Assembly: GCF_000284115.1 (NCBI RefSeq)
Contig: NC_017080.1
Coordinates: 3,300,001-3,332,000 of the forward strand
Source: Phycisphaera mikurensis NBRC 102666
GTDB taxonomy: Bacteria; Planctomycetota; Phycisphaerae; Phycisphaerales; Phycisphaeraceae
Direction of reading: 5' to 3'
Length of the DNA: 32,000 nt
Shown: piece by piece, positions 2,769 through 32,000 of the stretch
How the letters are laid out: each line of letters opens with the position of its first letter
How positions within the stretch are numbered: the stretch's first letter is position 1
The notes under the pieces: model-generated
Database searches by the model: none
The model's input: the letters and a program-made list of their open reading frames with translations, nothing else
What the model was told of the DNA's origin: nothing
Program-made: the position numbers and the translations under genes

Positions 2769-3431
2769 TCACGCGCTGAACTTCGTCTCCCGCCAGAGCC
2801 GCGAGAGCTGCGGGCAGGCCGTGAGGAAGGGGGCGGCCTCGGCCCGGGCGGCGCGGTCGTGGAGCAGAGCCGTCAGCCGCGCGATCGTCCACGCCGGCAG
2901 CGGCCGCTCGCGGAGGCCGAGCGCATCGCCCGAGGCGACCACCCCGGGGCTGAGCACGCGGACGTACCAGCCGAGCCGACCGGTCTCGGCCGCGCGGCGC
3001 GCGAGCTCGGGCCGGTTCCAGCGGCGGCACAGCTTCCAGCAGGGCTCGCGCGGCTGGCTCACCTCCACGAGGGCCGAGCCGACGGCGAACACGTCGCCGA
3101 GGCAGACGGTCCGCTCGTCGAGCCCGCCGACCGTCCAGTTCTCGCCGAAGGCCGCCGGCGGGAAGCGGATGCCGTCGTCCTCCGCCCAGGCCCGGTAGTG
3201 GTCGGCGGCGTAGAGCAACGCCGCGCGATCGGGCCCCCCGTGCACCTCCAGGTCGGCCTGCCCGTCCCCGTCAAGCCCGTCGGTCCGCAGCGACACGGGG
3301 CCGCTCACGCGGCGCTTCGTGAAGCCGCTGGTCCAGGGCTTGCCGGCCGGGTCGTGCACGGACGGCACGCCCACCGACTGCTGCAGGATCCGCGGCTCGT
3401 CGTCGGGCTGGAGCGCCGTCATGGATCTCAC
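2769..3431 (-). CDS. MOSC domain-containing protein (YiiM-like)
   Basis: LEVHGGPDRAALLYAADHYRAW...GENWTVGGLDERTVCLGDVFAVGSALVEVSQPREPCWKL fits the MOSC beta-barrel with its conserved Cys. A GTG start at 3431 overlaps the urtE stop as GTGA; an alternative ATG is at 3422. Confidence 0.8.
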   Translation of the reverse strand: MRSMTALQPDDEPRILQQSVGVPSVHDPAGKPWTSGFTKRRVSGPVSLRTDGLDGDGQADLEVHGGPDRAALLYAADHYRAWAEDDGIRFPPAAFGENWTVGGLDERTVCLGDVFAVGSALVEVSQPREPCWKLCRRWNRPELARRAAETGRLGWYVRVLSPGVVASGDALGLRERPLPAWTIARLTALLHDRAARAEAAPFLTACPQLSRLWRETKFSA

Positions 3432-5030: not shown

Positions 5031-6233
5031 TCAAGCTCGCGTGGGGGCCGCGGACGGCGTGGGTTCGGGCACGGAAGCGGGGTCGGTCCGCGGCGCGGCC
5101 TCGGCGTCCGGCTTGCCGCCGAGGCCCGTGAGCCGGCCGAGCTTGGCGCCGGCCTGCGTGACGATGCCGGCGATGCCGCTGGGGAACAGCAGCGTGACCG
5201 CGATGAAGATCGCCCCCATCGCGAAGTACCAGAGCGCCGGGAACTCCTCGGAGAACCAGGTGCGGGCCCAGCTGATCAGCAGCGTCCCGAAGACGGCCCC
5301 GGTGAGGCTCATCCGACCGCCCACGGCGCAGAAGATCACCATGTAGATGCTCGGCTCGATCGTCACGAGCATCGGGCTGATCATGCCGGTGTTGAGCACG
5401 AACATCGCGCCGCCGAGGGCGGAGAAGGCGGCGGCCACGCAGAAGACGAAGGTCTTGAAGCTGGCGACGTCGTAGCCGGAGAAGCGGACGCGGTCCTCGC
5501 TGTCCCGCACCGCCACCAGCAGCCGGCCGAGCTTGCTGGAGAGGATCCACCGGCCGAGCAGCACCGTGCCGAGCAGGAAGACGACGGTGGCGAAGTACAG
5601 CGTGTTCTGCGCCCCCGGCGTCCGGATGTCCCAGCCGAGCATCGTCCGCAGGTCGGTGATCCCGTTGATGCCGCCGGTCCAGCCCTGCCGCGTCACGAAG
5701 AGCAGCTGCATCAGCCAGCACAGGGCCTGGGTGATGATCGCGAAGTACACGCCGCTCACGCGGCGCTTGAACATCGCGGTGCCCAGCAGGTAGGCGAGCA
5801 GCGTGGGGACCGCGAAGACCAGCACGAGCGTGAGCGGGAAGCTCTTGAAGGGGATCCAGAACCACGGCAGCTCCGTGATCTGGTTCCAGTCCATGAAGTC
5901 CGGCAGCCCCGCGGTCGTCAGCGCGTTGATCTGGTCGGTGCCCGACTCGGCCGCGATGTTGCCGGCCGCCTCGAGCTTCAGGAAGGCCGCGAGGCAGTAG
6001 CCGCCGAGGCCCCAGAAGACTCCCTGCCCCAGGCTCAGCACGCCGCCGTAGCCCCAGCAGAGCACCAGGCCCACCGCGACGAAGGCCAGCGAGAGGTACT
6101 TCGCCGCCATGTTCAGCCGGAAGGCGTCGAGCCACAGCGGCATCGCCAGCAGCAGCAGCGCCGCCAGCGCGGCGAAGGCCACGAGCCCGGCGTTGGAGCC
6201 GAAGAATCGGAATCGGATCTCGGAAGCGTTCAA
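5031..6233 (-). CDS. urtC: Urea/short-chain-amide ABC transporter permease UrtC
   Basis: 400-aa polytopic membrane protein of the LivM/UrtC type. The low-complexity Pro/Ala tail (last ~25 aa) is encoded by palindromic element copy H. Confidence 0.88.
   Translation of the reverse strand: MNASEIRFRFFGSNAGLVAFAALAALLLLAMPLWLDAFRLNMAAKYLSLAFVAVGLVLCWGYGGVLSLGQGVFWGLGGYCLAAFLKLEAAGNIAAESGTDQINALTTAGLPDFMDWNQITELPWFWIPFKSFPLTLVLVFAVPTLLAYLLGTAMFKRRVSGVYFAIITQALCWLMQLLFVTRQGWTGGINGITDLRTMLGWDIRTPGAQNTLYFATVVFLLGTVLLGRWILSSKLGRLLVAVRDSEDRVRFSGYDVASFKTFVFCVAAAFSALGGAMFVLNTGMISPMLVTIEPSIYMVIFCAVGGRMSLTGAVFGTLLISWARTWFSEEFPALWYFAMGAIFIAVTLLFPSGIAGIVTQAGAKLGRLTGLGGKPDAEAAPRTDPASVPEPTPSAAPTRA
5048..5093. 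repeat. 46-nt palindromic element, copy H (inside the 3' end of urtC)
   Basis: ccgcggacgg at 5048-5057 (one mismatch) and cggtccgcgg at 5084-5093, with a 26-nt interior. Confidence 0.8.
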
Positions 6234-6297
6234 GGGGTTCTCTATCGCGACAGGAGGACCCGGGCCGCTTGGCCCGGGCGGGAGCGTTCGGGGCTTC

Positions 6298-7248
6298 TCA
6301 ACGCCGGATCTTCGCCTTCACGAGCCCCTGCGGCCGCAGCAGCAGGATGCCCATCACGATCAGCAGCACGTACACCTTCGCCAGCACGCCCGAGAGGAAG
6401 AACTCGAGGATCGACTGCGTCTGCGCGATCGTGAAGGCCGCGAGGATCGTGCCCAGGATGCTGCCCGCCCCGCCGAAGACCACGATGATGAAGGTGTCGA
6501 CGATGTACAGCTTGCCGGCGTCGGGCGACACCGAGCCGATGGTCGTGAACGCCGCCCCGGCGACGCCGGCGATGCCGCAACCCAGCGCGAAGGTCATGCG
6601 GTCGGTCCGCTTGGTGTTGATGCCCGCCGCGTCGGCCATCGGCCGGTTCGCCACCGTCGCCCGCACCCGCAGGCCGTAGCGCGAGCGGAAGAGCAGGAAG
6701 TAGACCAGCCCCGTCACGAACGCCGCGAGGACGAGCATGAACATCCCGTTGATCGGGATGTCGACCATGTCGGTGACGGCCCAGGAGCCCATCAGCCAGT
6801 CGGGCATCACCGCCGAGTCCTCGCGGGCTCCGAAGCCCGAGCGGAAGCTCTGCTGCATGATCATCCCCAGCCCCCAGGTCGCGAGCAGGGTGTCCAGCGG
6901 GCGCTGGTAGAGCCAGCGGATGAGCGTGATCTCGACGAAGTAGCCCAGGGCACCGGCGACGAGAAAGGCCAGCACGATGGCGACCGGGAAGTAGTACGGC
7001 AGCGCCCACTCGGCGCTGCCGACCACGGAGTTGGAGACGAACACGGTGGTGTACGCGCCGAGCGTGAGGAACTCGCCGTGGGCCATGTTGATGACCTTCA
7101 TCTGGCCGAAGATGATCGCCAGGCCCAGGGCCATCAGCAGGAACACCGCGAACATGGAGAGCCCGTTGAAGCTCTGCATCATGAAGATCGCCTGGAGCTC
7201 CTCCGCGGAGTAGCCCTCGAACATGCTGAAGACGGCGAGCGTGGTCAT
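6298..7248 (-). CDS. urtB: Urea/short-chain-amide ABC transporter permease UrtB
   Basis: 316-aa LivH/UrtB-type permease (GLAIIFGQMKVINMAHGEF motif) between urtA and urtC. Confidence 0.9.
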   Translation of the reverse strand: MTTLAVFSMFEGYSAEELQAIFMMQSFNGLSMFAVFLLMALGLAIIFGQMKVINMAHGEFLTLGAYTTVFVSNSVVGSAEWALPYYFPVAIVLAFLVAGALGYFVEITLIRWLYQRPLDTLLATWGLGMIMQQSFRSGFGAREDSAVMPDWLMGSWAVTDMVDIPINGMFMLVLAAFVTGLVYFLLFRSRYGLRVRATVANRPMADAAGINTKRTDRMTFALGCGIAGVAGAAFTTIGSVSPDAGKLYIVDTFIIVVFGGAGSILGTILAAFTIAQTQSILEFFLSGVLAKVYVLLIVMGILLLRPQGLVKAKIRR

Positions 7249-7315
7249 CGTGATCTCGATCGGGCGTGGCCGCGTCGCGGCCGGGTGGAAGCGCGACGGC
7301 CCCGGTGGGGGGCGG

Positions 7316-7361
7316 CCGCGGATCGTCGACGGAAACCCATCGAACCGGCGACGGTCCGCGG
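7316..7361. repeat. 46-nt palindromic element, copy B (urtA-urtB intergenic)
   Basis: ccgcggatcg at 7316-7325 (one mismatch) and cggtccgcgg at 7352-7361. The stem extends by tcg/cga, identical to copy C. Confidence 0.85.
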
Positions 7362-7374
7362 GTTCGACGGCCGC

Positions 7375-8646
7375 TTACTGGTAACCCTCGGGGAAGGGGT
7401 TGGGCTCGATGAGCTCGTCGCTCTCGGCGAGGACCTTGAACTGGCCGTCGGGCATCATCTCGCCGATGCGGGCCTTGCTCCAGAGGTGGTGGTTCTCGTG
7501 GATGCGGACGTAGCCCTCGGGCGCGTTGTCCATCTCGATGCCCGGCGAGGCCGCGGCGATCTTGTCGATGTCGAAGCTGCCGGCCTTCTCGACCGTCTTC
7601 TTCCACAGCCACGGGCCCAGGTAGGCGGCCTGCGTCACGTCGCCGATCACCGAGTCGTCGCCCCAGCGCTCCTTGAACGCCGCGACGAAGGCCTTGTTCG
7701 CCGGGTTGTCCAGGCTCTGGAAGTACTTCATGCAGGCGTAGAAGCCCGCGACGTTCTCGCCGCCGATGCCGAGGATCTCGTCCTCGGTGGTGGAGATCGT
7801 CAGCAGGATCTGGCCGCGCTTGGCGAGGCTGTCGCCGGTGATGCCGGCCGCGTTGAGCTGCTTGTACCAGCTCACGTTGGAGCCGCCGACGACGATCGAG
7901 TAGATGCAGTCGGGCTTCTTGAGCTTCACCTTGTTGATGAGGCTGCCGAAGTTGGTGTGGCCCAGCGGGTAGTACTCCTCGCCGACGACCTTGCAGCCCT
8001 TGAGGTAGCGCTCGATGTGGAAGCGCGCGATCTTGTTGCTCGTCCGCGGCCAGATGTAGTCCGAGCCGATGAGGAAGAAGGTCTTGGCGCCCTTCTCGGT
8101 GTGCGCCCAGTCGAGGCCCCAGATGATCTGCTGCGTGGCCTCCTGGCCGGTGTAGATGACGTTCTTGCTGGCCTCGAGGCCCTCGTAGAACGTGGGGTAG
8201 TACAGCATGCCGTTCTCCTTCTCGAAGATCGGCAGCACGGCCTTCCGCGAGGCGGAGGTCCAGCAACCGAAGACGGTGCCGACCTTGTCGGAGATGAGCA
8301 GCTTCTTGGCCTTCTCCGCGAAGGTCGGCCAGTCGCTGGCGCCGTCCTCCTGGATGATCTCGATCTGCCGGCCGAGCACGCCGCCCTGGGCGTTGATCTG
8401 CTCGATCGCCAGGCGCTCGGCCTCCACCGAGCCGGTCTCGGAGATGGCCATCGTGCCGGTGACCGAGTGCAGCTGACCCACCGTGACGGTGTCGTCGGTG
8501 ACCATGAGGCCGGTGGTGTTGACCTCGCTCGTCGGGTACTCCTCGAGCATCGGGTTGGCGGCGAGCGCGGCCGGCGCGGCGGCGACGCTGAGCATCGCGG
8601 CGCCGAGCAGGCGGCGGAGGGAGGATCTGGCGGTGTGGGTCGTCAT
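7375..8646 (-). CDS. urtA: Urea/short-chain-amide ABC transporter substrate-binding protein UrtA (FmdD-like)
   Basis: 423 aa with an N-terminal signal (SLRRLLGAAMLSVAAAPAALA), then VGQLHSVTGTMAISE...INAQGGVLGRQIE..., typical of the UrtA/amide-binding periplasmic protein family. Confidence 0.9.
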   Translation of the reverse strand: MTTHTARSSLRRLLGAAMLSVAAAPAALAANPMLEEYPTSEVNTTGLMVTDDTVTVGQLHSVTGTMAISETGSVEAERLAIEQINAQGGVLGRQIEIIQEDGASDWPTFAEKAKKLLISDKVGTVFGCWTSASRKAVLPIFEKENGMLYYPTFYEGLEASKNVIYTGQEATQQIIWGLDWAHTEKGAKTFFLIGSDYIWPRTSNKIARFHIERYLKGCKVVGEEYYPLGHTNFGSLINKVKLKKPDCIYSIVVGGSNVSWYKQLNAAGITGDSLAKRGQILLTISTTEDEILGIGGENVAGFYACMKYFQSLDNPANKAFVAAFKERWGDDSVIGDVTQAAYLGPWLWKKTVEKAGSFDIDKIAAASPGIEMDNAPEGYVRIHENHHLWSKARIGEMMPDGQFKVLAESDELIEPNPFPEGYQ

Positions 8647-8749
8647 GGAGGTCTTCTCAGGAGCGGGCGGAAACGGAGCGGATCGGGCGCAGAGCGTCCG
8701 GGACGCGGCGGGGTGCCGCGCCTCTTGGGGGAGGAGGTTGCAAGGAGCG

Positions 8750-9073
8750 TCAGCCGTGCTCGATCACCCAGGGCCGCGGCCCGCGGGAGGCCGTGGGCAC
8801 GCCGCGGCCGGTGGTCTCGCTGAGGGGCACGCGGCCGGCGCCGTGCTTGTGGCTGCAGCCCGAGCCGCAGACGTGCGGTGCGTGGGCCGACTTCTCGTTG
8901 CGGTCGTGGGCGGTGATCTGGCTCGGGGCCATCTTCCGGGTCATCGGCGACGCGAAGAGGCGCGTGGCGTCGGCGCCGCACCGGGGACAGGCGCACTTCG
9001 CGCCGCTCCTCGCGATCGGGCGTTGCACCTCGAAGGTGCCGTGTGCGGGGCAGTCGAAGTCGTAACGCGGCAT
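8750..9073 (-). CDS. fmdB: FmdB-family zinc-ribbon putative regulatory protein
   Basis: Internal ATG at 9073 gives MPRYDFDCPAHGTFEVQRPIARSGAKCACPRCGADATRLF, the FmdB/CxxC_CxxC_SSSS zinc-ribbon pattern. Lies immediately downstream of the formamidase gene, as in the Methylophilus fmd locus. Confidence 0.75.
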   Translation of the reverse strand: MPRYDFDCPAHGTFEVQRPIARSGAKCACPRCGADATRLFASPMTRKMAPSQITAHDRNEKSAHAPHVCGSGCSHKHGAGRVPLSETTGRGVPTASRGPRPWVIEHG

Positions 9074-9113: not shown

Positions 9114-10337
9114 TCAGCCCGCGGCGCGGGCGAGATCGGCGCCGCCCATCGGGAAGGCCGACGGACCGTCGGCATTGGGCTTGATGTCGAAGTCGAAGAT
9201 GCCGGTGGGCAGCGCGAGCGTTGCGCACGCGTTGGGCACGTCGACGATGCCGCTGATGCGGCCCTCGATCGGCGCGGTGCCGAGGATCGCGTACGCCTGC
9301 TCGCCGGTGTAGCCGAAGAGCTTCAGGTAGTTGATGGCGTTCAGGCAGGCCTGGCGGTAGGCCACCGTTGCGTCGAGGAAGTGCTGCTGGCCGCTCTCGT
9401 CGACGCTGATGCCCTCGAACATGAGGTAGTCGCCGTACTCGGGCTTGATCGGCGAGGTCTCGAAGATCGGGTTGAGCACCGCGTACTTCTCGACGCCGCC
9501 CTTGATGAGGCTGACGCGGATGTCCAGGTAGCCCGCCATCTCGATGGCGCCGCAGAAGGTGATCTCGCCGTCGCCCTGGCTGAAGTGGATGTCGCCCATC
9601 GACAGCCCGCCGCCCTTGACGTACACGGGGAAGTAGACCTTCGACCCGCGGGTGAGGTCCTTGATGTCGCAGTTGCCGCCGTGCTCGCGGGGCGGCACGG
9701 TGCGCGCCCCTTCGGCGGCGGCTTTGTCGCGGGCGTCGCCGGTGAGGCGGCCCATGTGGGCGGTGTCGGCGTAGGGCAGGCAGGCCAGCGTCGGCACCCG
9801 GTCGGGATCGGTGTCGAACAGCGTGGTCTCGCGGCGGTTCCAAGTGTCGAGCAGATCTTGGCTTGGGAGGCAGCCGATGAGGCCGGGGTGCATGATCCCG
9901 GCGAACTCGACGCCGGGGATGTGCCGCGAGTTGGCGTACACGCCCGAGAAGTTCCAGCAGGCTTTGCGGGCGTCGGGGTAGTGCTCGTCGAGGAAGCCGC
10001 CGCCGTTGCTCTTCGCGAAGATGCCGGTGAAGCCCCAGTTGCTCTCGGGCAGGACGCCCACGTCGAGGATGTCGACGACCAGGAGGTCGCCGGGCTCGGC
10101 GCCCTCGACGCCGATCGGACCGCTGAGGTAGTGAACCTTCGAGAGGTCGACCGTGTGGATGTCCTGAGCGCTGTCGTCGTCGCGGATCTGCCCGCCGGTC
10201 CAGTCGACGCACTCCACGCGGAACTCGTCACCGGGCTTCACGGTGGCGACCATCGGGATGTCCGGATGCCAGCGGTTGTGGAGCACGTCCTGCGATTCCG
10301 GGGAGGCGGTGGTGTCGACCTTGATGAGCGTCTTCAT
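9114..10337 (-). CDS. fmdA: Formamidase (acetamidase/formamidase family)
   Basis: ATG at 10337 inside tracked ORF 9114..11255. MKTLIKVDTTASPESQDVLHNRWHPDIPMVATVKPGDEFRVECVDWTGGQI...GGNCDIKDLTRGSKVYFPVYVKGGGLSMGDIHFSQGDGEI is a full-length FmdA-type protein (407 aa). Confidence 0.92.
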   Translation of the reverse strand: MKTLIKVDTTASPESQDVLHNRWHPDIPMVATVKPGDEFRVECVDWTGGQIRDDDSAQDIHTVDLSKVHYLSGPIGVEGAEPGDLLVVDILDVGVLPESNWGFTGIFAKSNGGGFLDEHYPDARKACWNFSGVYANSRHIPGVEFAGIMHPGLIGCLPSQDLLDTWNRRETTLFDTDPDRVPTLACLPYADTAHMGRLTGDARDKAAAEGARTVPPREHGGNCDIKDLTRGSKVYFPVYVKGGGLSMGDIHFSQGDGEITFCGAIEMAGYLDIRVSLIKGGVEKYAVLNPIFETSPIKPEYGDYLMFEGISVDESGQQHFLDATVAYRQACLNAINYLKLFGYTGEQAYAILGTAPIEGRISGIVDVPNACATLALPTGIFDFDIKPNADGPSAFPMGGADLARAAG

Positions 10338-11786: not shown

Positions 11787-11832
11787 CCGCGGACCGCCGG
11801 CGGAATCGGCGCTTGCCGCCCGCAATCCGCGG
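11787..11832. repeat. 46-nt palindromic element, copy F (degenerate right arm)
   Basis: ccgcggaccg at 11787-11796 and caatccgcgg at 11823-11832 (two mismatches), with a 26-nt interior. It ends 2 nt before the stop codon of the 11835..12509 gene. Confidence 0.65.
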
Positions 11833-21371: not shown

Positions 21372-21417
21372 CCGCGGACCGTCGCCGATCGGGCGGGCCG
21401 GGGCCGACGGTCCGCGG
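21372..21417. repeat. 46-nt palindromic element, copy C
   Basis: ccgcggaccg at 21372-21381 and cggtccgcgg at 21408-21417. The stem extends to 13-14 bp (..tcg/cga..). It lies 15 nt upstream of the 21357 start, in the divergent region before topA. Confidence 0.85.
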
Positions 21418-24408: not shown

Positions 24409-24454
24409 CCGCGGACCGAGGCCCTCAGGCGGCTCGGAGCCCCGCGGTCCGCGG
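24409..24454. repeat. 46-nt palindromic element, copy D (topA-hsdM intergenic)
   Basis: ccgcggaccg at 24409-24418 and cggtccgcgg at 24445-24454, perfect arms and a 26-nt interior. Begins 10 nt after the topA stop. Confidence 0.85.
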
Positions 24455-24485: not shown

Positions 24486-26147
24486 ATGCCCGCGACCGAA
24501 CACGCTTTCCTCCGCGAGCTCGACGCCAAGCTCTGGGCCGCCGCCGACAAGCTGCGGAACAACCTCGACGCCGCCCAGTACAAGCACGCCGTCCTGGGGC
24601 TGATCTTCCTGAAGTACGTCTCCGACGCCTTCGACGCCCGCCGCGAGCGGGTGCTCGCCGACCTGCGCGACCCGGACAGCGAGTCCTTCTACCCCGACGC
24701 CACCGAAGAGGACCTGCACGCCGAGCTGGAGGACAGAGACCACTACACCGCCGCGAACACCTTCTGGGTCCCCCCGCTGGCCCGCTGGCAGAACCTCCAG
24801 AGCTGGGCCAAGCTGCCGCCGCAGACGACCGTGGAGGTGAAGAATGGCAAGACGGAGAAGTACACGATCAAGAGCACCGCGCTGCTCATCGACGACGCCC
24901 TCGCCGCCGTCGAGCACGAGAACGAGCCGCTCAAGAACGTCCTCGCCCGCGACACCTACGCCCGCCTGCAGTTGGATCCCGCCAATCTGCGCGGCCTGAT
25001 CGACCTGGTCGCCGGCATCCCCTTCACCCACGACCGCCTGCAGGCCCGGGACATCCTCGGCCACGTGTACGAGTACTTCCTGGGCCAGTTCGCCTTGGCG
25101 GAGGGCAAGAAGGGCGGCCAGTACTTCACGCCGAAGAGCATCGTCGGCCTCATCGTCGAGATGCTGCAGCCGTACTGGGGCCGCGTCTACGACCCGGCGA
25201 TGGGCAGCGGCGGCTTCTTCGTCGAGATCGAGAAGCACGTGGAGCGGGCCTACGACGAACGCACCCACGGCGCTTCCGGGGGGATCAGCGTCTACGGGCA
25301 GGAGAGCAACCCCACCACCTGGCGGCTGGCCGCGATGAACATGGCCATCCGCGGCATCGACTTCAACTTCGGCAAGACGTGGGCGAACAGCTTCACGCAG
25401 GACCAGCACCCCGACCTGCGGGCCGACTTCGTGATGGCCAACCCGCCGTTCAACGTGAGCGACTGGTGGGACGCCAAGCTCGCCGACGACCCGCGCTGGA
25501 CGCACGGCACGCCGCCCAAGGGCAACGCGAACTTCGCCTGGGTGCAGCACATGCTCCACCACCTGGCCCCCACCGGCAGCATGGCCCTGCTGCTGGCCAA
25601 CGGCAGCATGTCCGGCACGTCCGGCGGCGAGGGCGACATCCGCCGCGCCCTCGTCGAGGCCGACCTGGTCGAGTGCATGGTCGCCCTGCCCGGCCAGCTG
25701 TTTACCAACACGCAGATCCCCGCGTGCATCTGGTTCCTCACGAAGGACAAGGCGGCGCGGAACGGCAAACGCGACCGCCGCGGCGAGGTGCTCTTTCTCG
25801 ACGCCCGCGGCGTCGGCTACATGAAGGACCGCGTGCTGCGCGACTTCACCCGTGAAGACATCCAGAAGCTCGCCGGCACCTTCCACGCCTGGCAAGGCTT
25901 GGGCGACGACGAGTACGCCGACATCCCCGGCTTCTGCAAGTCAGCGACGCTAGCCGAGATCGCCGCCCAGGGCTTCGTGCTGACTCCCGGCCGCTACGTC
26001 GGTGTCGCCGCGGCGGAGGACGACGGCGAGCCCTTCGCCGAGAAGATGGCCCGCCTGACGGCCGAGCTGAGCGGGCAGTTCGAGGAGTCCGCTGCGCTGG
26101 AGGCGAAGATCCGGCGGAACCTGGAGGGGGTGGGATATGAGGTCTGA
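24486..26147 (+). CDS. hsdM: Type I restriction-modification system, DNA methyltransferase subunit M
   Basis: HsdM N-terminal domain (LWAAADKLRNNLDAAQYKHAVLGLIFLKYVSD), AdoMet motif (VYDPAMGSGGFF) and catalytic NPPF (FVMANPPFNVSDW). Confidence 0.95.
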   Translation: MPATEHAFLRELDAKLWAAADKLRNNLDAAQYKHAVLGLIFLKYVSDAFDARRERVLADLRDPDSESFYPDATEEDLHAELEDRDHYTAANTFWVPPLARWQNLQSWAKLPPQTTVEVKNGKTEKYTIKSTALLIDDALAAVEHENEPLKNVLARDTYARLQLDPANLRGLIDLVAGIPFTHDRLQARDILGHVYEYFLGQFALAEGKKGGQYFTPKSIVGLIVEMLQPYWGRVYDPAMGSGGFFVEIEKHVERAYDERTHGASGGISVYGQESNPTTWRLAAMNMAIRGIDFNFGKTWANSFTQDQHPDLRADFVMANPPFNVSDWWDAKLADDPRWTHGTPPKGNANFAWVQHMLHHLAPTGSMALLLANGSMSGTSGGEGDIRRALVEADLVECMVALPGQLFTNTQIPACIWFLTKDKAARNGKRDRRGEVLFLDARGVGYMKDRVLRDFTREDIQKLAGTFHAWQGLGDDEYADIPGFCKSATLAEIAAQGFVLTPGRYVGVAAAEDDGEPFAEKMARLTAELSGQFEESAALEAKIRRNLEGVGYEV

Positions 26148-27498
26148 TGTGTCAGCATGGACGCCGCGGCGCCTCGCCGACTGTGCGACATGGATCTCCG
26201 GGGGTACGCCTTCAAAGAAGAATCGAGATTACTGGGACGGCGACATCCCTTGGGTATCTGCCAAAGACATGAAGTCATTCAGGCTTCACGACAGCGTGGA
26301 CCACATCACGGAGCGAGCCGTAGACGATGGAGCGAAGCTCGTTCCGCGCGACTCCATCCTGCTTCTCGTCCGCGGCATGACGTTGAACAACGACGTCCCG
26401 ATCTGCATGACGGATCGGCAGATGGCGCTCAACCAGGACCTGAAGGCGCTATTGCCTGCTGATGACGTCGACGCTCACTTCCTCGCGTACTGGCTGCTCG
26501 CGAACAAGCCCCAGCTGCTTTCTTCGGTCGAACATGCGGGACACGGCACCGGCAAGCTAGCGACGCCCGTTTTGCAATCGATGCAGATCGCTCTCCCCCC
26601 GCTCTCCGAGCAGCGGGCGATCGCGGCGGTGTTGGGGTCGCTGGATGACAAGATCGCGTTGAACCGTCGGATGAACCGGACGCTGGAATCGCTGGCCCGG
26701 GCGTGGTTCCAGAGCTGGTTCGTCGACTTCGACCCCGTCCACGCGAACGCCGCCGGCCGGCCGACCCTCCCCCCCGACCTCGCCGCCCTCTTCCCCGCCA
26801 CCTTCACCCCCTCCCCCCTCGGCGACATCCCGGAGGGCTGGGAGGTGAAGCCCGTCGGCGACATCGTCGACTGCGTCGGCGGCGGCACGCCGAGCACGAA
26901 GAACGACGACTACTGGGAGGGCGGCACGCACCACTGGGCGACGCCAAAGGACCTGTCGTCGCTCGACGCCCCGATCCTTACGACGACGAACCGGAAGCTG
27001 ACCGACGCCGGCGTCGGCAAGGTCTCGTCTGGCCTGCTGGAACGCGGCACCGTCCTCATGTCATCCCGAGCCCCCGTCGGCTACCTCGCCATCGCCGACG
27101 TGCCGGTCGCCGTCAACCAGGGCTTTATCGCCATGAAGCCGACCGATGCGATGCCGGCGTCGTTCCTGCTGAACTGGTGCCAGCACAACATGGAGACCAT
27201 CAAGAGCCAGGCCGGCGGCACGACCTTCGCCGAGATCAGCAAGAAGGCCTTCCGCCCGATCCCGATGCTCGTCCCGCCGCCCGGCGTCGCGTCCCGCTTC
27301 GCAGAAATCGTCGGCCCGATGTACGCCCGAATTACGCTGAACGTCCGCGAGAGCGAGACGCTCGCCGCCCTCCGTGACGCCCTGCTGCCTCGCTTGCTCT
27401 CCGGCGAGCTGCCCGCACCCGCGGACCGTGACGATCTTCCGCCCGTGGAGCCCACGGTCCGCGGCAACCCCGGCCGGTCGCCGGTGGCCCCCGCCTGA
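26137..27498 (+). CDS. hsdS: Type I restriction-modification system, specificity subunit S
   Basis: Two target-recognition domains separated by conserved helices (LSEQRAIAAVLGSLDDKIALNRRMNRTLESLARAWFQSWFVDFDPV; C-terminal ETLAALRDALLPRLLSGEL). Overlaps hsdM by 11 nt. The 27-aa tail after SGEL is encoded by palindromic copy G. Confidence 0.92.
   Translation: MRSDVSAWTPRRLADCATWISGGTPSKKNRDYWDGDIPWVSAKDMKSFRLHDSVDHITERAVDDGAKLVPRDSILLLVRGMTLNNDVPICMTDRQMALNQDLKALLPADDVDAHFLAYWLLANKPQLLSSVEHAGHGTGKLATPVLQSMQIALPPLSEQRAIAAVLGSLDDKIALNRRMNRTLESLARAWFQSWFVDFDPVHANAAGRPTLPPDLAALFPATFTPSPLGDIPEGWEVKPVGDIVDCVGGGTPSTKNDDYWEGGTHHWATPKDLSSLDAPILTTTNRKLTDAGVGKVSSGLLERGTVLMSSRAPVGYLAIADVPVAVNQGFIAMKPTDAMPASFLLNWCQHNMETIKSQAGGTTFAEISKKAFRPIPMLVPPPGVASRFAEIVGPMYARITLNVRESETLAALRDALLPRLLSGELPAPADRDDLPPVEPTVRGNPGRSPVAPA
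27419..27464. repeat. 46-nt palindromic element, copy G (inside the 3' end of hsdS, just upstream of darT)
   Basis: ccgcggaccg at 27419-27428 and cggtccgcgg at 27455-27464. The stem extends to 12 bp (..tg/ca..), with a 26-nt interior between the 10-bp arms. Confidence 0.85.
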
Positions 27499-28139
27499 TG
27501 GCCGCCTATTCCGCCGAGCGCGCGCAGATCTTTCGGTTGACCCACCGGGACAACCTGCCGTGGATCCTGGAGCACGGGCTGCACTGCCCGACAAGCGACA
27601 CGCTGGACCCCGGCTTCGTCGCAATCGGGCGGGAGGAGATCATCGACCGCCGCACCCGCCACGAGGTTTCGTGCGGGCCCGGCGGGGTGCTCGCGGACTA
27701 CGTGCCGTTCTACTTCACCCCGCGGTCGATCATGGCGTTCAACATCCGCACCGGGTTCCACGGGCTGACGCAGCGTGACAACGACGACCTCGTGGTGCTG
27801 GTGTCGTCCATCCCCCGCCTGCTGGAGATGTCCATCGGCTTCGTGTTCTACAGCGGGCAAGCGATGCTGCACGAGAGCACCTGCCACGCCGACGCCGCGG
27901 ACCTGACGAAGATCGACTGGGCCCTGCTCAACGCGGCCGACTTCCGCAACGATCCGGAGGACCCGGGGAAGAAGGGGCGGTACCAGGCGGAGGCGCTGGT
28001 CCACCGCCACACGCCGGTGGAGGCCTTGCTCGGCGTCGGGTGCTACAGTCCGAAGGTGGCGCACGAGGTGGATCTCCTCGTGCAGCGAAGCGGCAGGGAT
28101 CTCGCCGTCAAGCCCGCGCCGAAGCTGTTTTTCCGATGA
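27498..28139 (+). CDS. darT: DarT, ssDNA thymidine ADP-ribosyltransferase toxin (DUF4433 family)
   Basis: 213 aa. IFRLTHRDNLPWILEHGL, GGVLADYVPFYFTPRSIMAF and GRYQAEALVHRHTPVEALLGVGCYS parallel the conserved DarT blocks as I remember them from Thermus DarT, including the catalytic Glu in QAE.LV. The ATG shares one base with the hsdS stop (TGATG). Confidence 0.85.
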   Translation: MAAYSAERAQIFRLTHRDNLPWILEHGLHCPTSDTLDPGFVAIGREEIIDRRTRHEVSCGPGGVLADYVPFYFTPRSIMAFNIRTGFHGLTQRDNDDLVVLVSSIPRLLEMSIGFVFYSGQAMLHESTCHADAADLTKIDWALLNAADFRNDPEDPGKKGRYQAEALVHRHTPVEALLGVGCYSPKVAHEVDLLVQRSGRDLAVKPAPKLFFR

Positions 28140-29200
28140 TCCACGCCACGGATGGCAATCTCCTTGAAGCGGACGCGGAAGCGCTCGTGAACACGGTCAA
28201 CACCGTGGGCGTGATGGGCAAGGGCATCGCCCTGATGTTCAAGGAACGCTTCCCGGAGAACTTCCGGCGCTACGCCGCCGCCTGCAAGCGGGAGGAGGTC
28301 CAGACCGGGCGCGTCTTCGCGGTGGCCAACGAGGAGCTGGCCGGGCCACACTGGATCTACAACTTCCCGACGAAGCGGCACTGGCGGTCGCCCTCCCGGC
28401 TGGAGTGGATCGACGAGGGCCTCGCCGACCTGGCGTGGCTGCTGCGCGAGCACAGGGTCGCCTCGGTCGCGGTCCCGCCCCTTGGGGCCGGCAACGGCGG
28501 GCTGAAGTGGGCGGACGTCCGGCCGCTGGTGGAGCGACACCTCGGCAGCCTGCCCGGGGTCGACGTGCTGCTGTACGAGCCGACGCAGGCGTACCAGAAC
28601 GTCTCGAAGACGACCGGCAAGGAGCGGCTCACGCTGGCGCGGGCGCTGGTCGCGGAGATGGTCCGCCGCTACGGGGTGCTCGGGCTGGACTGCTCGATCC
28701 TCGAGATCCAGAAGCTCGCTTGGGTGCTGCAGCGTCAGATCCGGCAGTTGGGCTTGGATGACCCGTTGGAGCTTGACTTCAAGGCCAACCGCTACGGCCC
28801 CTATTCCGACCGCCTCCGTCACCTCCTCGACGCCCTCGACGGGAGCTGGCTGCGGAGCGAGAAGCGGCTTGCCGATGCCGAACCCCCGGACACGATCCGC
28901 TTCGCGCCCGGTCGGGAGCGAAAGCTCGGCGAGTGGTTCGGTGCGGGGCAAGGCTTCCACTACCGAGAAGCCGTGGAGGCGACCGACGCCTTGATCGATG
29001 GCTTCCAGTCGCCGCTGGGCCTGGAGGCGCTCGCCACGGTGGGGTGGCTCCTCGACGAGGAAGGGGTGGAGCCGAGCCTCGCGGCGGTGCGTGAGGGCAT
29101 CGCTCGCTGGCCTGCGGGGCCCGCCGCGGCCGAGCGGAAGGCGGGGCTGTTCGGCGATCACCTGCTCGAGGCCGCCATCCGGCGGTACACGCACCCGTGA
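28136..29200 (+). CDS. darG: DarG, macrodomain DNA ADP-ribosyl glycohydrolase antitoxin
   Basis: ATG at 28136 overlaps the darT stop (ATGA). N-terminal macrodomain (DAEALVNTVNTVGVMGKGIALMFKERFP; IYNFPTKRHWRSPS) plus a ~200-aa C-terminal domain, the DarG architecture. Confidence 0.85.
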   Translation: MIHATDGNLLEADAEALVNTVNTVGVMGKGIALMFKERFPENFRRYAAACKREEVQTGRVFAVANEELAGPHWIYNFPTKRHWRSPSRLEWIDEGLADLAWLLREHRVASVAVPPLGAGNGGLKWADVRPLVERHLGSLPGVDVLLYEPTQAYQNVSKTTGKERLTLARALVAEMVRRYGVLGLDCSILEIQKLAWVLQRQIRQLGLDDPLELDFKANRYGPYSDRLRHLLDALDGSWLRSEKRLADAEPPDTIRFAPGRERKLGEWFGAGQGFHYREAVEATDALIDGFQSPLGLEALATVGWLLDEEGVEPSLAAVREGIARWPAGPAAAERKAGLFGDHLLEAAIRRYTHP

Positions 29201-29211
29201 GCGAGAACCCG

Positions 29212-29257
29212 CCGCGGACCGTGCGTGGCTGCGGCCGTTGCGGCCGGTGGTCTGCGG
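29212..29257. repeat. 46-nt palindromic element, copy E (darG-hsdR intergenic)
   Basis: ccgcggaccg at 29212-29221 and tggtctgcgg at 29248-29257. Both right-arm substitutions still allow G-U pairs in a plus-strand RNA. 26-nt interior. Confidence 0.75.
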
Positions 29258-29288
29258 GGGTGCGAGGGCTCCCGCAGCAGGAGAACGA

Positions 29289-32000
29289 GTGATCAACGAG
29301 GACGCCGTCGAGCAGAAGGCTCTTCGCTGGTTCCAGGACACCGGCTGGGCGTACCTCCACGGGTCGGAGCTGGCCCCGGACGTGGCGCCCGAGCAGCGGG
29401 CGGACGGAAAGGCGGTGGTGCTGGCCGGGCGGCTGGCGGAGGCGGTGCGGCGGCTGAACCCGCAGCTGCCGGCCGAGGCGGTGGAGGAGGTGGTGCGGGC
29501 GGCAACGCAGCGGGAGCACCCGGACCTCGCCCGGGCCAACGCGGCGTTCCACCGGAGGATGATCGACGGGGTGCCCGTCCGCTTCGAGGATCCTTCCACC
29601 GGCGAGAAGGTCCAGGACGTGGCCCGGCTGGTGGACTTCGGCGGAGCCGCGAACAACGACTGGCTGGTGGTGAACCAGCTGGCGATCGCGGGAACCAAGG
29701 ACGGGCGGCGGCCGGACGTAATCGCCTATCTCAATGGCCTGCCGATCGCGGTGATCGAGCTGAAGAACCCGGCGGACGAAAAGGCCGACGTGTGGGCGGC
29801 GTACCGGCAGCTGCAGACCTACAAGGACGAGATCGGCGAGCTGTTCGTCCGCAACGCGGCGCTGGTGGTGAGCGACGGGATCACGGCGCGGGTCGGGTCG
29901 CTGACGGCGAGCCCCGAGTGGTTCCTGCCGTGGCGGGCGGTGAGCGGCGAGGCGGACCAGCCCAAGGTGGAGATGGAGCTGGAGCGGGTCGTCCGCGGGT
30001 TCTTCCGGCCGGACCTCCTGCTGGACTACCTGCGGCACTTCATCCTGTTCGAGGGCGAAGAAGACGTCGTGAAGAAGATCGCTGGATACCACCAGTTCCA
30101 CGGGGTGCGGGCGGCGGTGGAGGCGACGGTGGTCGCCGCGGACCGCGGCGTGGAAACGGCTCCGGGCGACGCGGTCCGCGAGCGGCCGGCGGCGGACTGG
30201 GGGCGGCGGGTGCCGCGGGGCAGCGGGAAGGCGGGCGTCTTCTGGCACACGCAGGGCTCGGGCAAAAGCATTTCCATGGCCATGTACGCGGGCAAGCTGA
30301 TGCAGCAGCCGGCGATGAACAACCCGACCCTGGTGGTGGTCACCGACCGCCTTGACCTCGACGGGCAGCTGTTCGCGCAGTTCGCGGCGGCGAAGTCGCT
30401 GCTGGGCGAGAAGCCCGACCAGGCGGAGAGCCGGGAGCAGCTGCGCGACTACCTCGACGGCCGGGCCAGCGGCGGGATCGTGTTCACGACGGTGCAAAAG
30501 TTCGCGCCGCTGGACGGGGAGGAGGCGCACCCGGTGCTGAGCGGGCGGAGCAACGTCGTCGTGATCAGCGACGAGGCGCACCGCAGCCAGTACGGGATCA
30601 AGCCGACGCTGGACAGGAAGACCGGGCGGTACGTCTACGGCTACGCCAAGCACCTCCGCGATGCCCTTTCGGGGGCGTCGTTCATCGGGTTCACGGGGAC
30701 GCCGATCAGCAGCGAGGACCGCGACACCCGCGGCGTGTTCGGCGAGTACGTGAGCGTCTACGACATCGCCGACGCCGTGGAGGACGGGGCGACGGTGCAG
30801 ATCTACTACGAGAGCCGGCGGGCGAAGCTGGACCTGAACGACGCGGAGATCGAGACGCTCAACCAACAGGTGGACGAGGTCGTCGAGGACGAGGAGACCG
30901 AGGACCGGGAGCGGACCAAGGGCCACTGGGCGCAGCTGGCGAAGCTGGTGGGGGCGCGGCCGCGGCTGGAGGCGATCGCGGACGACCTGCTGGCGCACTT
31001 CGACCAGCGGAAGGAGGCGATGGCGTCGCAGGTCGGGCCCGACGGCGGGAAGGCGATGATCGTCACGATGAGCCGGGACATCTGCGTCGCGCTCTTCGAC
31101 GAGATCGTCCGCCGGCGGCCGGAGATGGCGGGCAGCCGGAAGGACGACGGCACGTGGAACCCCGAGGACGGGTCGATCCGCGTGGTGATGACCGGCACGG
31201 CGACCGATCGGGTTGAGCTGCGGCACCACCAGCACGGCAAGGCCCAGCGCGAGCGGCTGGCCAAGCGGTTCAAGGACCCGGCCGACCCGCTGGAGCTGGT
31301 GATCGTGCGGGACATGTGGCTGACCGGCTTCGACGCGCCGTGCTGCCACACGATGTATGTGGACAAGCCGATGCGGGGGCATGCGCTGATGCAGGCGATC
31401 GCCCGGGTGAACCGGGTGTTCCGCGAGAAGGCGGGCGGGCTGGTGGTCGACTACATCGGGATCGCCAACGAGCTGAAGCAGGCGCTCAAGACGTACACGG
31501 AGAGCAAGGGGCGTGGCCAGCCGACGGTGCGGGCGGAGGACGGGCTTCGCATCCTGAAGGAGAAGGTGGGCGTTCTGCGGGACATGATGCGGGAGAACGG
31601 CGGCTTCGCGTACGCGGGCTTCGAGACGCAGCCGTTGGAGCTGCTGCCGGGGGTGACGAACCACCTCCTCGGGCTCGACGACGGCAAGCGGCGCTTCCTG
31701 GACGTGATGGCCTCGGTGCTGAAGGCGTTCAGCCTGTGCGCCACGCTGGACGAGGCGGCGGCGCTGCGGACGGAGATCGCGTTCTTCTCGGCCGTCCGCG
31801 GCGTGCTCGCCAAGCACGGGCAGGAAGAGCCGAAGCGTGGCGGCGCGGACAAGAGCGCATCGCTCAAGCTGATCCTGGACAACGCGGTGGTGAGCGAGGG
31901 CGTGGACGACATCTTCGCGATGGCGGGGCTGGAGCGGCCGGACATCGGGCTGCTGAGCGAGGGGTTCCTCGAGGACGTGCGGCGGATGCCGGCGAAGAAC
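29289..32000 (+). CDS. hsdR: Type I restriction-modification system, endonuclease/translocase subunit R (3' end outside the window)
   Basis: The frame is open from GTG 29289 (AGGAG 5 nt upstream) to the window end, so it is absent from the ORF track. My hand translation gives VINEDAVEQKALRWFQDTGWAYL..., a nuclease-domain-like segment (PDVIAYLNGLPIAVIELK) and helicase motifs (WHTQGSGKS, VVISDEAHRSQ, FIGFTGTP, MWLTGFDAP). Confidence 0.93.
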   Translation, partial: MINEDAVEQKALRWFQDTGWAYLHGSELAPDVAPEQRADGKAVVLAGRLAEAVRRLNPQLPAEAVEEVVRAATQREHPDLARANAAFHRRMIDGVPVRFEDPSTGEKVQDVARLVDFGGAANNDWLVVNQLAIAGTKDGRRPDVIAYLNGLPIAVIELKNPADEKADVWAAYRQLQTYKDEIGELFVRNAALVVSDGITARVGSLTASPEWFLPWRAVSGEADQPKVEMELERVVRGFFRPDLLLDYLRHFILFEGEEDVVKKIAGYHQFHGVRAAVEATVVAADRGVETAPGDAVRERPAADWGRRVPRGSGKAGVFWHTQGSGKSISMAMYAGKLMQQPAMNNPTLVVVTDRLDLDGQLFAQFAAAKSLLGEKPDQAESREQLRDYLDGRASGGIVFTTVQKFAPLDGEEAHPVLSGRSNVVVISDEAHRSQYGIKPTLDRKTGRYVYGYAKHLRDALSGASFIGFTGTPISSEDRDTRGVFGEYVSVYDIADAVEDGATVQIYYESRRAKLDLNDAEIETLNQQVDEVVEDEETEDRERTKGHWAQLAKLVGARPRLEAIADDLLAHFDQRKEAMASQVGPDGGKAMIVTMSRDICVALFDEIVRRRPEMAGSRKDDGTWNPEDGSIRVVMTGTATDRVELRHHQHGKAQRERLAKRFKDPADPLELVIVRDMWLTGFDAPCCHTMYVDKPMRGHALMQAIARVNRVFREKAGGLVVDYIGIANELKQALKTYTESKGRGQPTVRAEDGLRILKEKVGVLRDMMRENGGFAYAGFETQPLELLPGVTNHLLGLDDGKRRFLDVMASVLKAFSLCATLDEAAALRTEIAFFSAVRGVLAKHGQEEPKRGGADKSASLKLILDNAVVSEGVDDIFAMAGLERPDIGLLSEGFLEDVRRMPAKN
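30136..30181. repeat. 46-nt palindromic element, copy I (in frame inside hsdR)
   Basis: ccgcggaccg at 30136-30145 and cggtccgcga at 30172-30181 (one terminal mismatch), with a 26-nt interior. Encodes AADRGVETAPGDAVRE just upstream of the Walker A motif. Confidence 0.8.

Follow-up and report, generated by a model that had tools for sequence, protein, structure and literature searches.

[quoted passage not shown] This arrangement raises the question of whether the toxin answers to the RM complex that surrounds it or acts as a defence layer of its own. Type I systems methylate host sites through the HsdM2S complex and cleave unmodified incoming DNA through HsdR. Toxins of the DarT2 type use NAD+ to ADP-ribosylate thymidine in single-stranded DNA; the macrodomain of the antitoxin DarG removes the mark, and the C-terminal domain of DarG sequesters DarT. 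Upon infection DarT escapes DarG and blocks phage DNA replication, resulting in abortive infection. We consider it likely that P. mikurensis carries a co-oriented five-gene defence operon, in which a type I RM system houses a DarTG2 cassette at its hsdS|hsdR junction and the two systems work as autonomous layers.

The locus comprises five genes, all co-oriented, with the following features:

24486-26147, + strand: hsdM, 553 aa, type I N6-adenine methyltransferase subunit
26137-27498, + strand: hsdS, 453 aa, specificity subunit with two Methylase_S domains
27498-28139, + strand: darT, 213 aa, DarT2-type ssDNA ADP-ribosyltransferase toxin by family match
28136-29200, + strand: darG, 354 aa, antitoxin with a macrodomain and a C-terminal DarT-binding domain
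29279-29283, + strand: AGGAG, a Shine-Dalgarno-like motif separated from the hsdR GTG by 5 nt
GTG 29289 to 32000 (window end), + strand: hsdR, restriction/translocase subunit, 903 aa within the window

The gene junctions given in the preliminary description hold to the nucleotide. The hsdM and hsdS genes overlap by 11 nt. In the sequence TGATG (27496-27500) the last base of the hsdS stop TGA (27496-27498) is also the first of the darT ATG (27498-27500), and in ATGA (28136-28139) the darT stop TGA (28137-28139) overlaps the darG ATG (28136-28138). The hsdR gene follows the end of darG (29200) after a spacer of 88 nt with the arrangement AGGAG-N5-GTG. The complete hsdR on the matching contig L001 encodes 1071 aa, and a sulfatase gene in convergent orientation comes next. 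Upstream, a full-length topoisomerase I gene (topA) ends 86 nt away from hsdM. The defence island is a lone insertion amid housekeeping genes in a genome of ∼70% GC, and no flanking IS elements were seen at the locus. Elsewhere in the window, an ORF at 6109-8820 does not correspond to a recorded gene.

Profile searches bear out the proposed composite of type I RM and DarTG: all five families are recognised at curated thresholds, with their motifs intact. Among the RM subunits, HsdM matches N6_Mtase (2.7e-107) and HsdM_N, scores 143 against TIGR00497, which is below the cut-off of 243, and carries the motifs DPAMGSGGF (residue 236) and NPPF (residue 319). HsdR matches HSDR_N, SWI2_SNF2 and T1RH-like_C, reaches 559 bits against TIGR00348 (cut-off 285), and retains the PD...ELK nuclease motif (residue 142), GSGKS (323) and DEAH (428); the closest solved HsdR is that of the type IC enzyme EcoR124I. 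The identities assigned earlier to hsdM, hsdS and hsdR are thereby upheld, and the cluster contains what defines a type I RM system: an HsdM with NPPF, an HsdS with two TRDs, and an HsdR that joins a PD-(D/E)xK nuclease to an SF2 ATPase.

The 213-aa ORF, put forward as DarT, is matched over its full length by Pfam PF14487 (3.6e-56, 190.5 bits against a cut-off of 22.5, model positions 1-201 of 201) and by NCBIfam toxin_DarT (NF048013; 212 bits, cut-off 150), and PADLOC calls both DarT and DarG. It also matches the solved structures of Thermus DarT (7omv) and Mycobacterium tuberculosis DarT (7yk3_A). The glutamate of QAEALV (residues 163-168), pointed out earlier, is E165 and aligns with the catalytic position mutated in 7omv (E160A). 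Both this glutamate of the ART fold and the conserved NAD+/DNA-binding residues are in place: H16, R52, Y68, Y72, R161 and E165 are invariant across 23 homologues. Among the matches listed, identity to the best relatives outside the species is 44–74%. By family membership, the P. mikurensis enzyme is predicted to be specific for thymidine. The NCBI record is already named DarT, with a length of 200 aa from a TTG at 27537. We rejected this PGAP start, since the 13 residues upstream of it are conserved in homologues, where M1, A9, I11, F12 and R13 are nearly invariant. The conserved N-terminus supports the ATG at 27498, and the 200-aa form therefore looks truncated. The database start of DarT in the closest homologue, P0002, likewise looks too short.

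For the 354-aa ORF, the predicted combination of a macrodomain with a C-terminal domain, as in DarG, is confirmed by matches to Pfam Macro (2.6e-20), to NCBIfam antitoxin_DarG (NF048014; 396 bits, cut-off 250, residues 2-350) and to solved structures; PADLOC assigns it at 6e-114. The N-terminal macrodomain (residues 3-151) has K80 in FPTK and PPLGAGNGG intact, and is similar to the macrodomains of Thermus aquaticus DarG (7e-55) and M. tuberculosis DarG (2.5e-51). Residues 187-327 match the C-terminal, DarT-binding domain of M. tuberculosis DarG (7yk3_B). An alternative darG start, GTG 28040, was rejected, because alignments to homologues, to NCBIfam and to PDB entries begin at residues 1-3 counted from ATG 28136. 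The DarTG2 subfamily is defined by a macrodomain antitoxin and thymidine specificity (PMC11543638). In P. mikurensis the antitoxin gene directly follows darT and encodes a macrodomain, not a NADAR domain, with a C-terminal DarT-binding domain. The DarTG2 systems of T. aquaticus, Thermus sp. 2.9 and M. tuberculosis (7omv, 5m31, 5m3i, 7yk3) share with it the DarT fold family and the catalytic glutamate, the toxin-first gene order with a stop/start overlap, and the two-domain DarG, although the P. mikurensis toxin is distant from Thermus DarT (E-value 1e-20).

The preliminary description regarded the pairing of darTG with type I RM as probably not new, and the literature agrees. In enteropathogenic Escherichia coli (EPEC) E2348/69 the hsdS and hsdR genes of a type I RM system enclose a DarTG2 system that is functional against phage; the island is driven from a single promoter upstream of its first gene, rptR, and the study points to the hsdS|hsdR site as a probable hotspot at which defence genes are embedded (PMC12255303). 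According to a review from 2021, which cites the discovery paper of 2016, DarTG is often found encoded alongside RM systems (PMC8385414). Since the layout has been published and functionally studied in E. coli, the P. mikurensis locus is an ordinary new example and not a discovery; it adds a planctomycete to the published architecture. Both loci contain the co-oriented series hsdM-hsdS-darT-darG-hsdR. The EPEC island, termed RRDM, consists of RptR, type I RM, DarTG2 and M48. In P. mikurensis, by contrast, no RptR repressor gene lies upstream, where the 86 nt between topA and hsdM leave no room for an RptR-like regulator gene, and a convergent sulfatase gene takes the place of the M48 peptidase downstream. 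The locus is thus not an RRDM-type island.

The tight spacing of the genes, together with the lack of a promoter-like site inside the cluster, argues for the operon structure anticipated in the preliminary description, and the five genes are probably co-transcribed. The promoter and terminator scan of the cluster returned no promoter-like or convincing terminator-like site and nothing above shuffled expectation. Folding z-scores for the topA|hsdM and darG|hsdR spacers (+0.34 and −0.54) are no better than those of shuffled sequence and suggest no special structure there, and an Rfam search of the window gave no match. By analogy with classical type I systems, a separate hsdR promoter could be present in the 88-nt spacer, where the gene has its own Shine-Dalgarno motif. 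Translation of darT and darG is probably coupled to the upstream cistron. Under this organisation type I restriction would provide the first line of defence and abortive infection by DarTG2 the second; the two would share regulation and be inherited or mobilised together, and DarT would not be controlled by the RM complex. DarTG2 operons cloned alone, without RM, restrict phage (PMC13309987).

To explore how often DarTG is embedded in this way, we drew on 80 DarT loci, the closest among species-representative genomes. RM neighbours were under-detected by single-sequence phmmer searches, and iterated local profiles and Pfam counts were used instead. By Pfam, hsdS lies directly upstream of darT in 14/63 loci, and an HsdR-like helicase directly downstream of darG in 13/56. 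By iterated local profiles, the order M-S-T-G-R occurs in 18 of the 59 loci with both flanks, a count that includes the P. mikurensis locus and L082; the others comprise four R-T-G loci, two T-G-R loci and 35 without type I RM nearby. The frequency of embedding is thus ∼22–31% among the closest DarT loci, across at least two type I families. Packing in embedded loci is usually as close as in P. mikurensis: 1-12 nt separate hsdS from darT, and darG and hsdR overlap by 4 nt. All five genes recur in unchanged order in the closest relative, the metagenomic contig L082, at 75–84% protein identity (HsdM 80%), with HsdS at 48%; the five-gene unit has thus been inherited whole. For the next-closest DarTG pairs, L002 and L003, the surrounding RM genes belong to another type I family. 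Where sister clades are embedded in other families, similarity to the P. mikurensis HsdM is only ∼1e-18 and HsdR has ∼800 aa versus 1071 aa. Because two or more type I families have accepted DarTG at the hsdS|hsdR junction, the survey supports this site as a general docking point for second-line defence. DarT and DarG have equal lengths in embedded and stand-alone loci, and the embedded proteins thus have no extra domain. Among variants, darTG follows hsdR (M-S-R-T-G) in L057, L069, L064 and L078; L030, L041 and L053 are embedded loci with an intact darTG and a short or fragmentary hsdR.

The main alternative to autonomous layers is a guard arrangement, proposed in the preliminary description, in which HsdMS or HsdR restrains DarT or the DarT–DarG pair and a phage anti-restriction protein of the Ocr, ArdA or Stp kind releases it by disabling the RM enzyme. 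The site of insertion is indeed the same as that of prrC in EcoprrI, as noted earlier: in this type IC RM locus, too, the gene of an abortive-infection effector lies between hsdS and hsdR. Guardians of RM are an accepted class (PrrC, PARIS), embedding of DarTG is recurrent and co-inherited, and our literature search turned up no study of how anti-restriction proteins affect DarTG, which leaves room for such a role. PrrC, however, is an ABC-ATPase/tRNA nuclease that has no antitoxin and is masked by the RM complex, whereas the P. mikurensis effector is by family a DNA ADP-ribosyltransferase and has a dedicated antitoxin, complete and with two modes of neutralisation, enzymatic and sequestering. 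DarTG2 alone defends against phage (PMC13309987), and ∼60% of the close relatives have no type I RM nearby, while four sit after hsdR. The type I family that hosts DarTG changes between sister clades, and since the RM partners differ to the extent described above, a specific protein interface between DarTG and RM is unlikely. Neither length nor domain content distinguishes embedded from stand-alone DarT and DarG, and DarTG persists in some embedded relatives whose hsdR is fragmentary. We found no support in the sequence for the guard inference, and the antitoxin of its own with two modes, the stand-alone defence, the equal lengths, the varying RM family and the fragmentary hsdR together make the arrangement unlikely. 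It is similarly doubtful that, in embedded loci, DarT is freed from DarG by the type I complex or by DNA mimics of the Ocr/ArdA kind that inhibit this complex. If this were so, DarTG would join PrrC and PARIS as another type of RM guardian; as a system for testing the trigger, the P. mikurensis locus offers no advantage over the existing E. coli model.

Somewhat less probable still is that DarTG hitch-hikes in the RM operon as an addiction module that stabilises the island by penalising its loss, in which case phage defence would be of minor weight or lacking altogether. DarTG is a bona fide toxin–antitoxin pair, the five genes travel as a unit, the island stands alone amid housekeeping genes, and the preprint on embedding mentions a possible selfish benefit of linked transfer. 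Against this, several DarTG systems give direct phage defence and type I RM systems are to some extent addictive themselves; no sequence feature separates addiction from defence, and the one does not preclude the other. Cooperation at the DNA level, with DarT ADP-ribosylation and type I methylation or translocation acting as one pathway on the same invading DNA, is a highly improbable reading: it has been speculated upon in a review (PMC8385414) and would suit genes that are probably co-expressed from one operon, but we found no supporting data, DarT targets ssDNA whereas type I enzymes target dsDNA, and DarTG works alone (PMC13309987).

Returning to the operon with two autonomous layers, we found that its modules are bounded by copies of a dispersed bipartite palindrome of 44 nt, CGCGGACCG-N26-CGGTCCGCG. 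The element has 11 matches at ≤3 mismatches versus 0.54 expected, and is a real dispersed repeat. Its copies are:

2713-2756, 5049-5092, 7317-7360, 11788-11831 and 21373-21416: copies in the window away from the operon
24410-24453: copy in the 86-nt topA|hsdM spacer
27420-27463: perfect copy in the hsdS 3' tail, ending 34 nt before the darT ATG
29213-29256: degenerate copy (2 mismatches) in the darG|hsdR spacer
30137-30180: perfect copy, in frame in a variable linker of hsdR (∼aa 283-297)
L001 20902-20945: copy on this contig
L082 2990-3033 and 8021-8064: copies in the closest relative

The arms are conserved and only the 26-nt spacing is enriched, while the spacer sequences are unrelated and unconstrained; tested for extended hairpins, they show fold and self-complementarity no better than those of shuffled spacers. 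Most copies are intergenic or lie just after stop codons, and two are in frame (hsdS and hsdR). One copy is found at each boundary between the modules topA|hsdMS|darTG|hsdR. Among all loci fetched, the element is multi-copy only in P. mikurensis and L082; scans of metagenomes and viruses recovered almost exclusively single-copy matches, possibly due to chance, and Rfam holds no match to the element. The boundary palindromes might punctuate the operon transcript. A further idea, which we consider improbable, is that they set differential expression of, or recombination between, hsdMS, darTG and hsdR.

The copy in the hsdS tail accounts for the form of the hsdS/darT junction. In L082 hsdS stops inside the orthologous element (2990-3033), 40 nt before the darT ATG. 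The P. mikurensis hsdS reads through the element, which gives rise both to the TGATG overlap with darT and to 20 extra residues: the C-terminal extension DDLPPVEPTVRGNPGRSPVAPA (27432-27498) is absent from the closest relative. The TGATG overlap is therefore lineage-specific and not conserved in L082.

The bias of G versus C at third codon positions shifts steadily along the operon despite the common strand, from −0.24 in hsdM through −0.15 in hsdS, −0.06 in darT and +0.03 in darG to +0.18 in hsdR; flanking host genes range from −0.19 to −0.33. The gradient is present but weaker in L082, and may reflect a mosaic origin of hsdR.

In six proteobacterial relatives darT is immediately preceded, with an overlap or end to end, by another, divergent ORF of the DarT family, so that DarT'-DarT-DarG triads result:

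L018, 7496-7969: second DarT-family ORF
L048, 218-784: second DarT-family ORF
L059, 7355-7981: second DarT-family ORF
L070, 7420-7992: second DarT-family ORF
L077, 555-1148: second DarT-family ORF
L079, 7414-7983: second DarT-family ORF

The Pfam DarT model finds these ORFs (∼160-209 aa) with E-values of 1e-13 to 5e-26; they are 22–28% identical to P. mikurensis DarT and keep the catalytic glutamate in a MAECL motif. In the type I RM locus of Marinomonas vulgaris (L018), hsdS and darT are separated by ∼4 kb of further genes, and a Fic/DOC-family gene (9694-10299) comes right after darG with a 1-nt overlap; the hsdS|hsdR junction of this locus is more heavily loaded.
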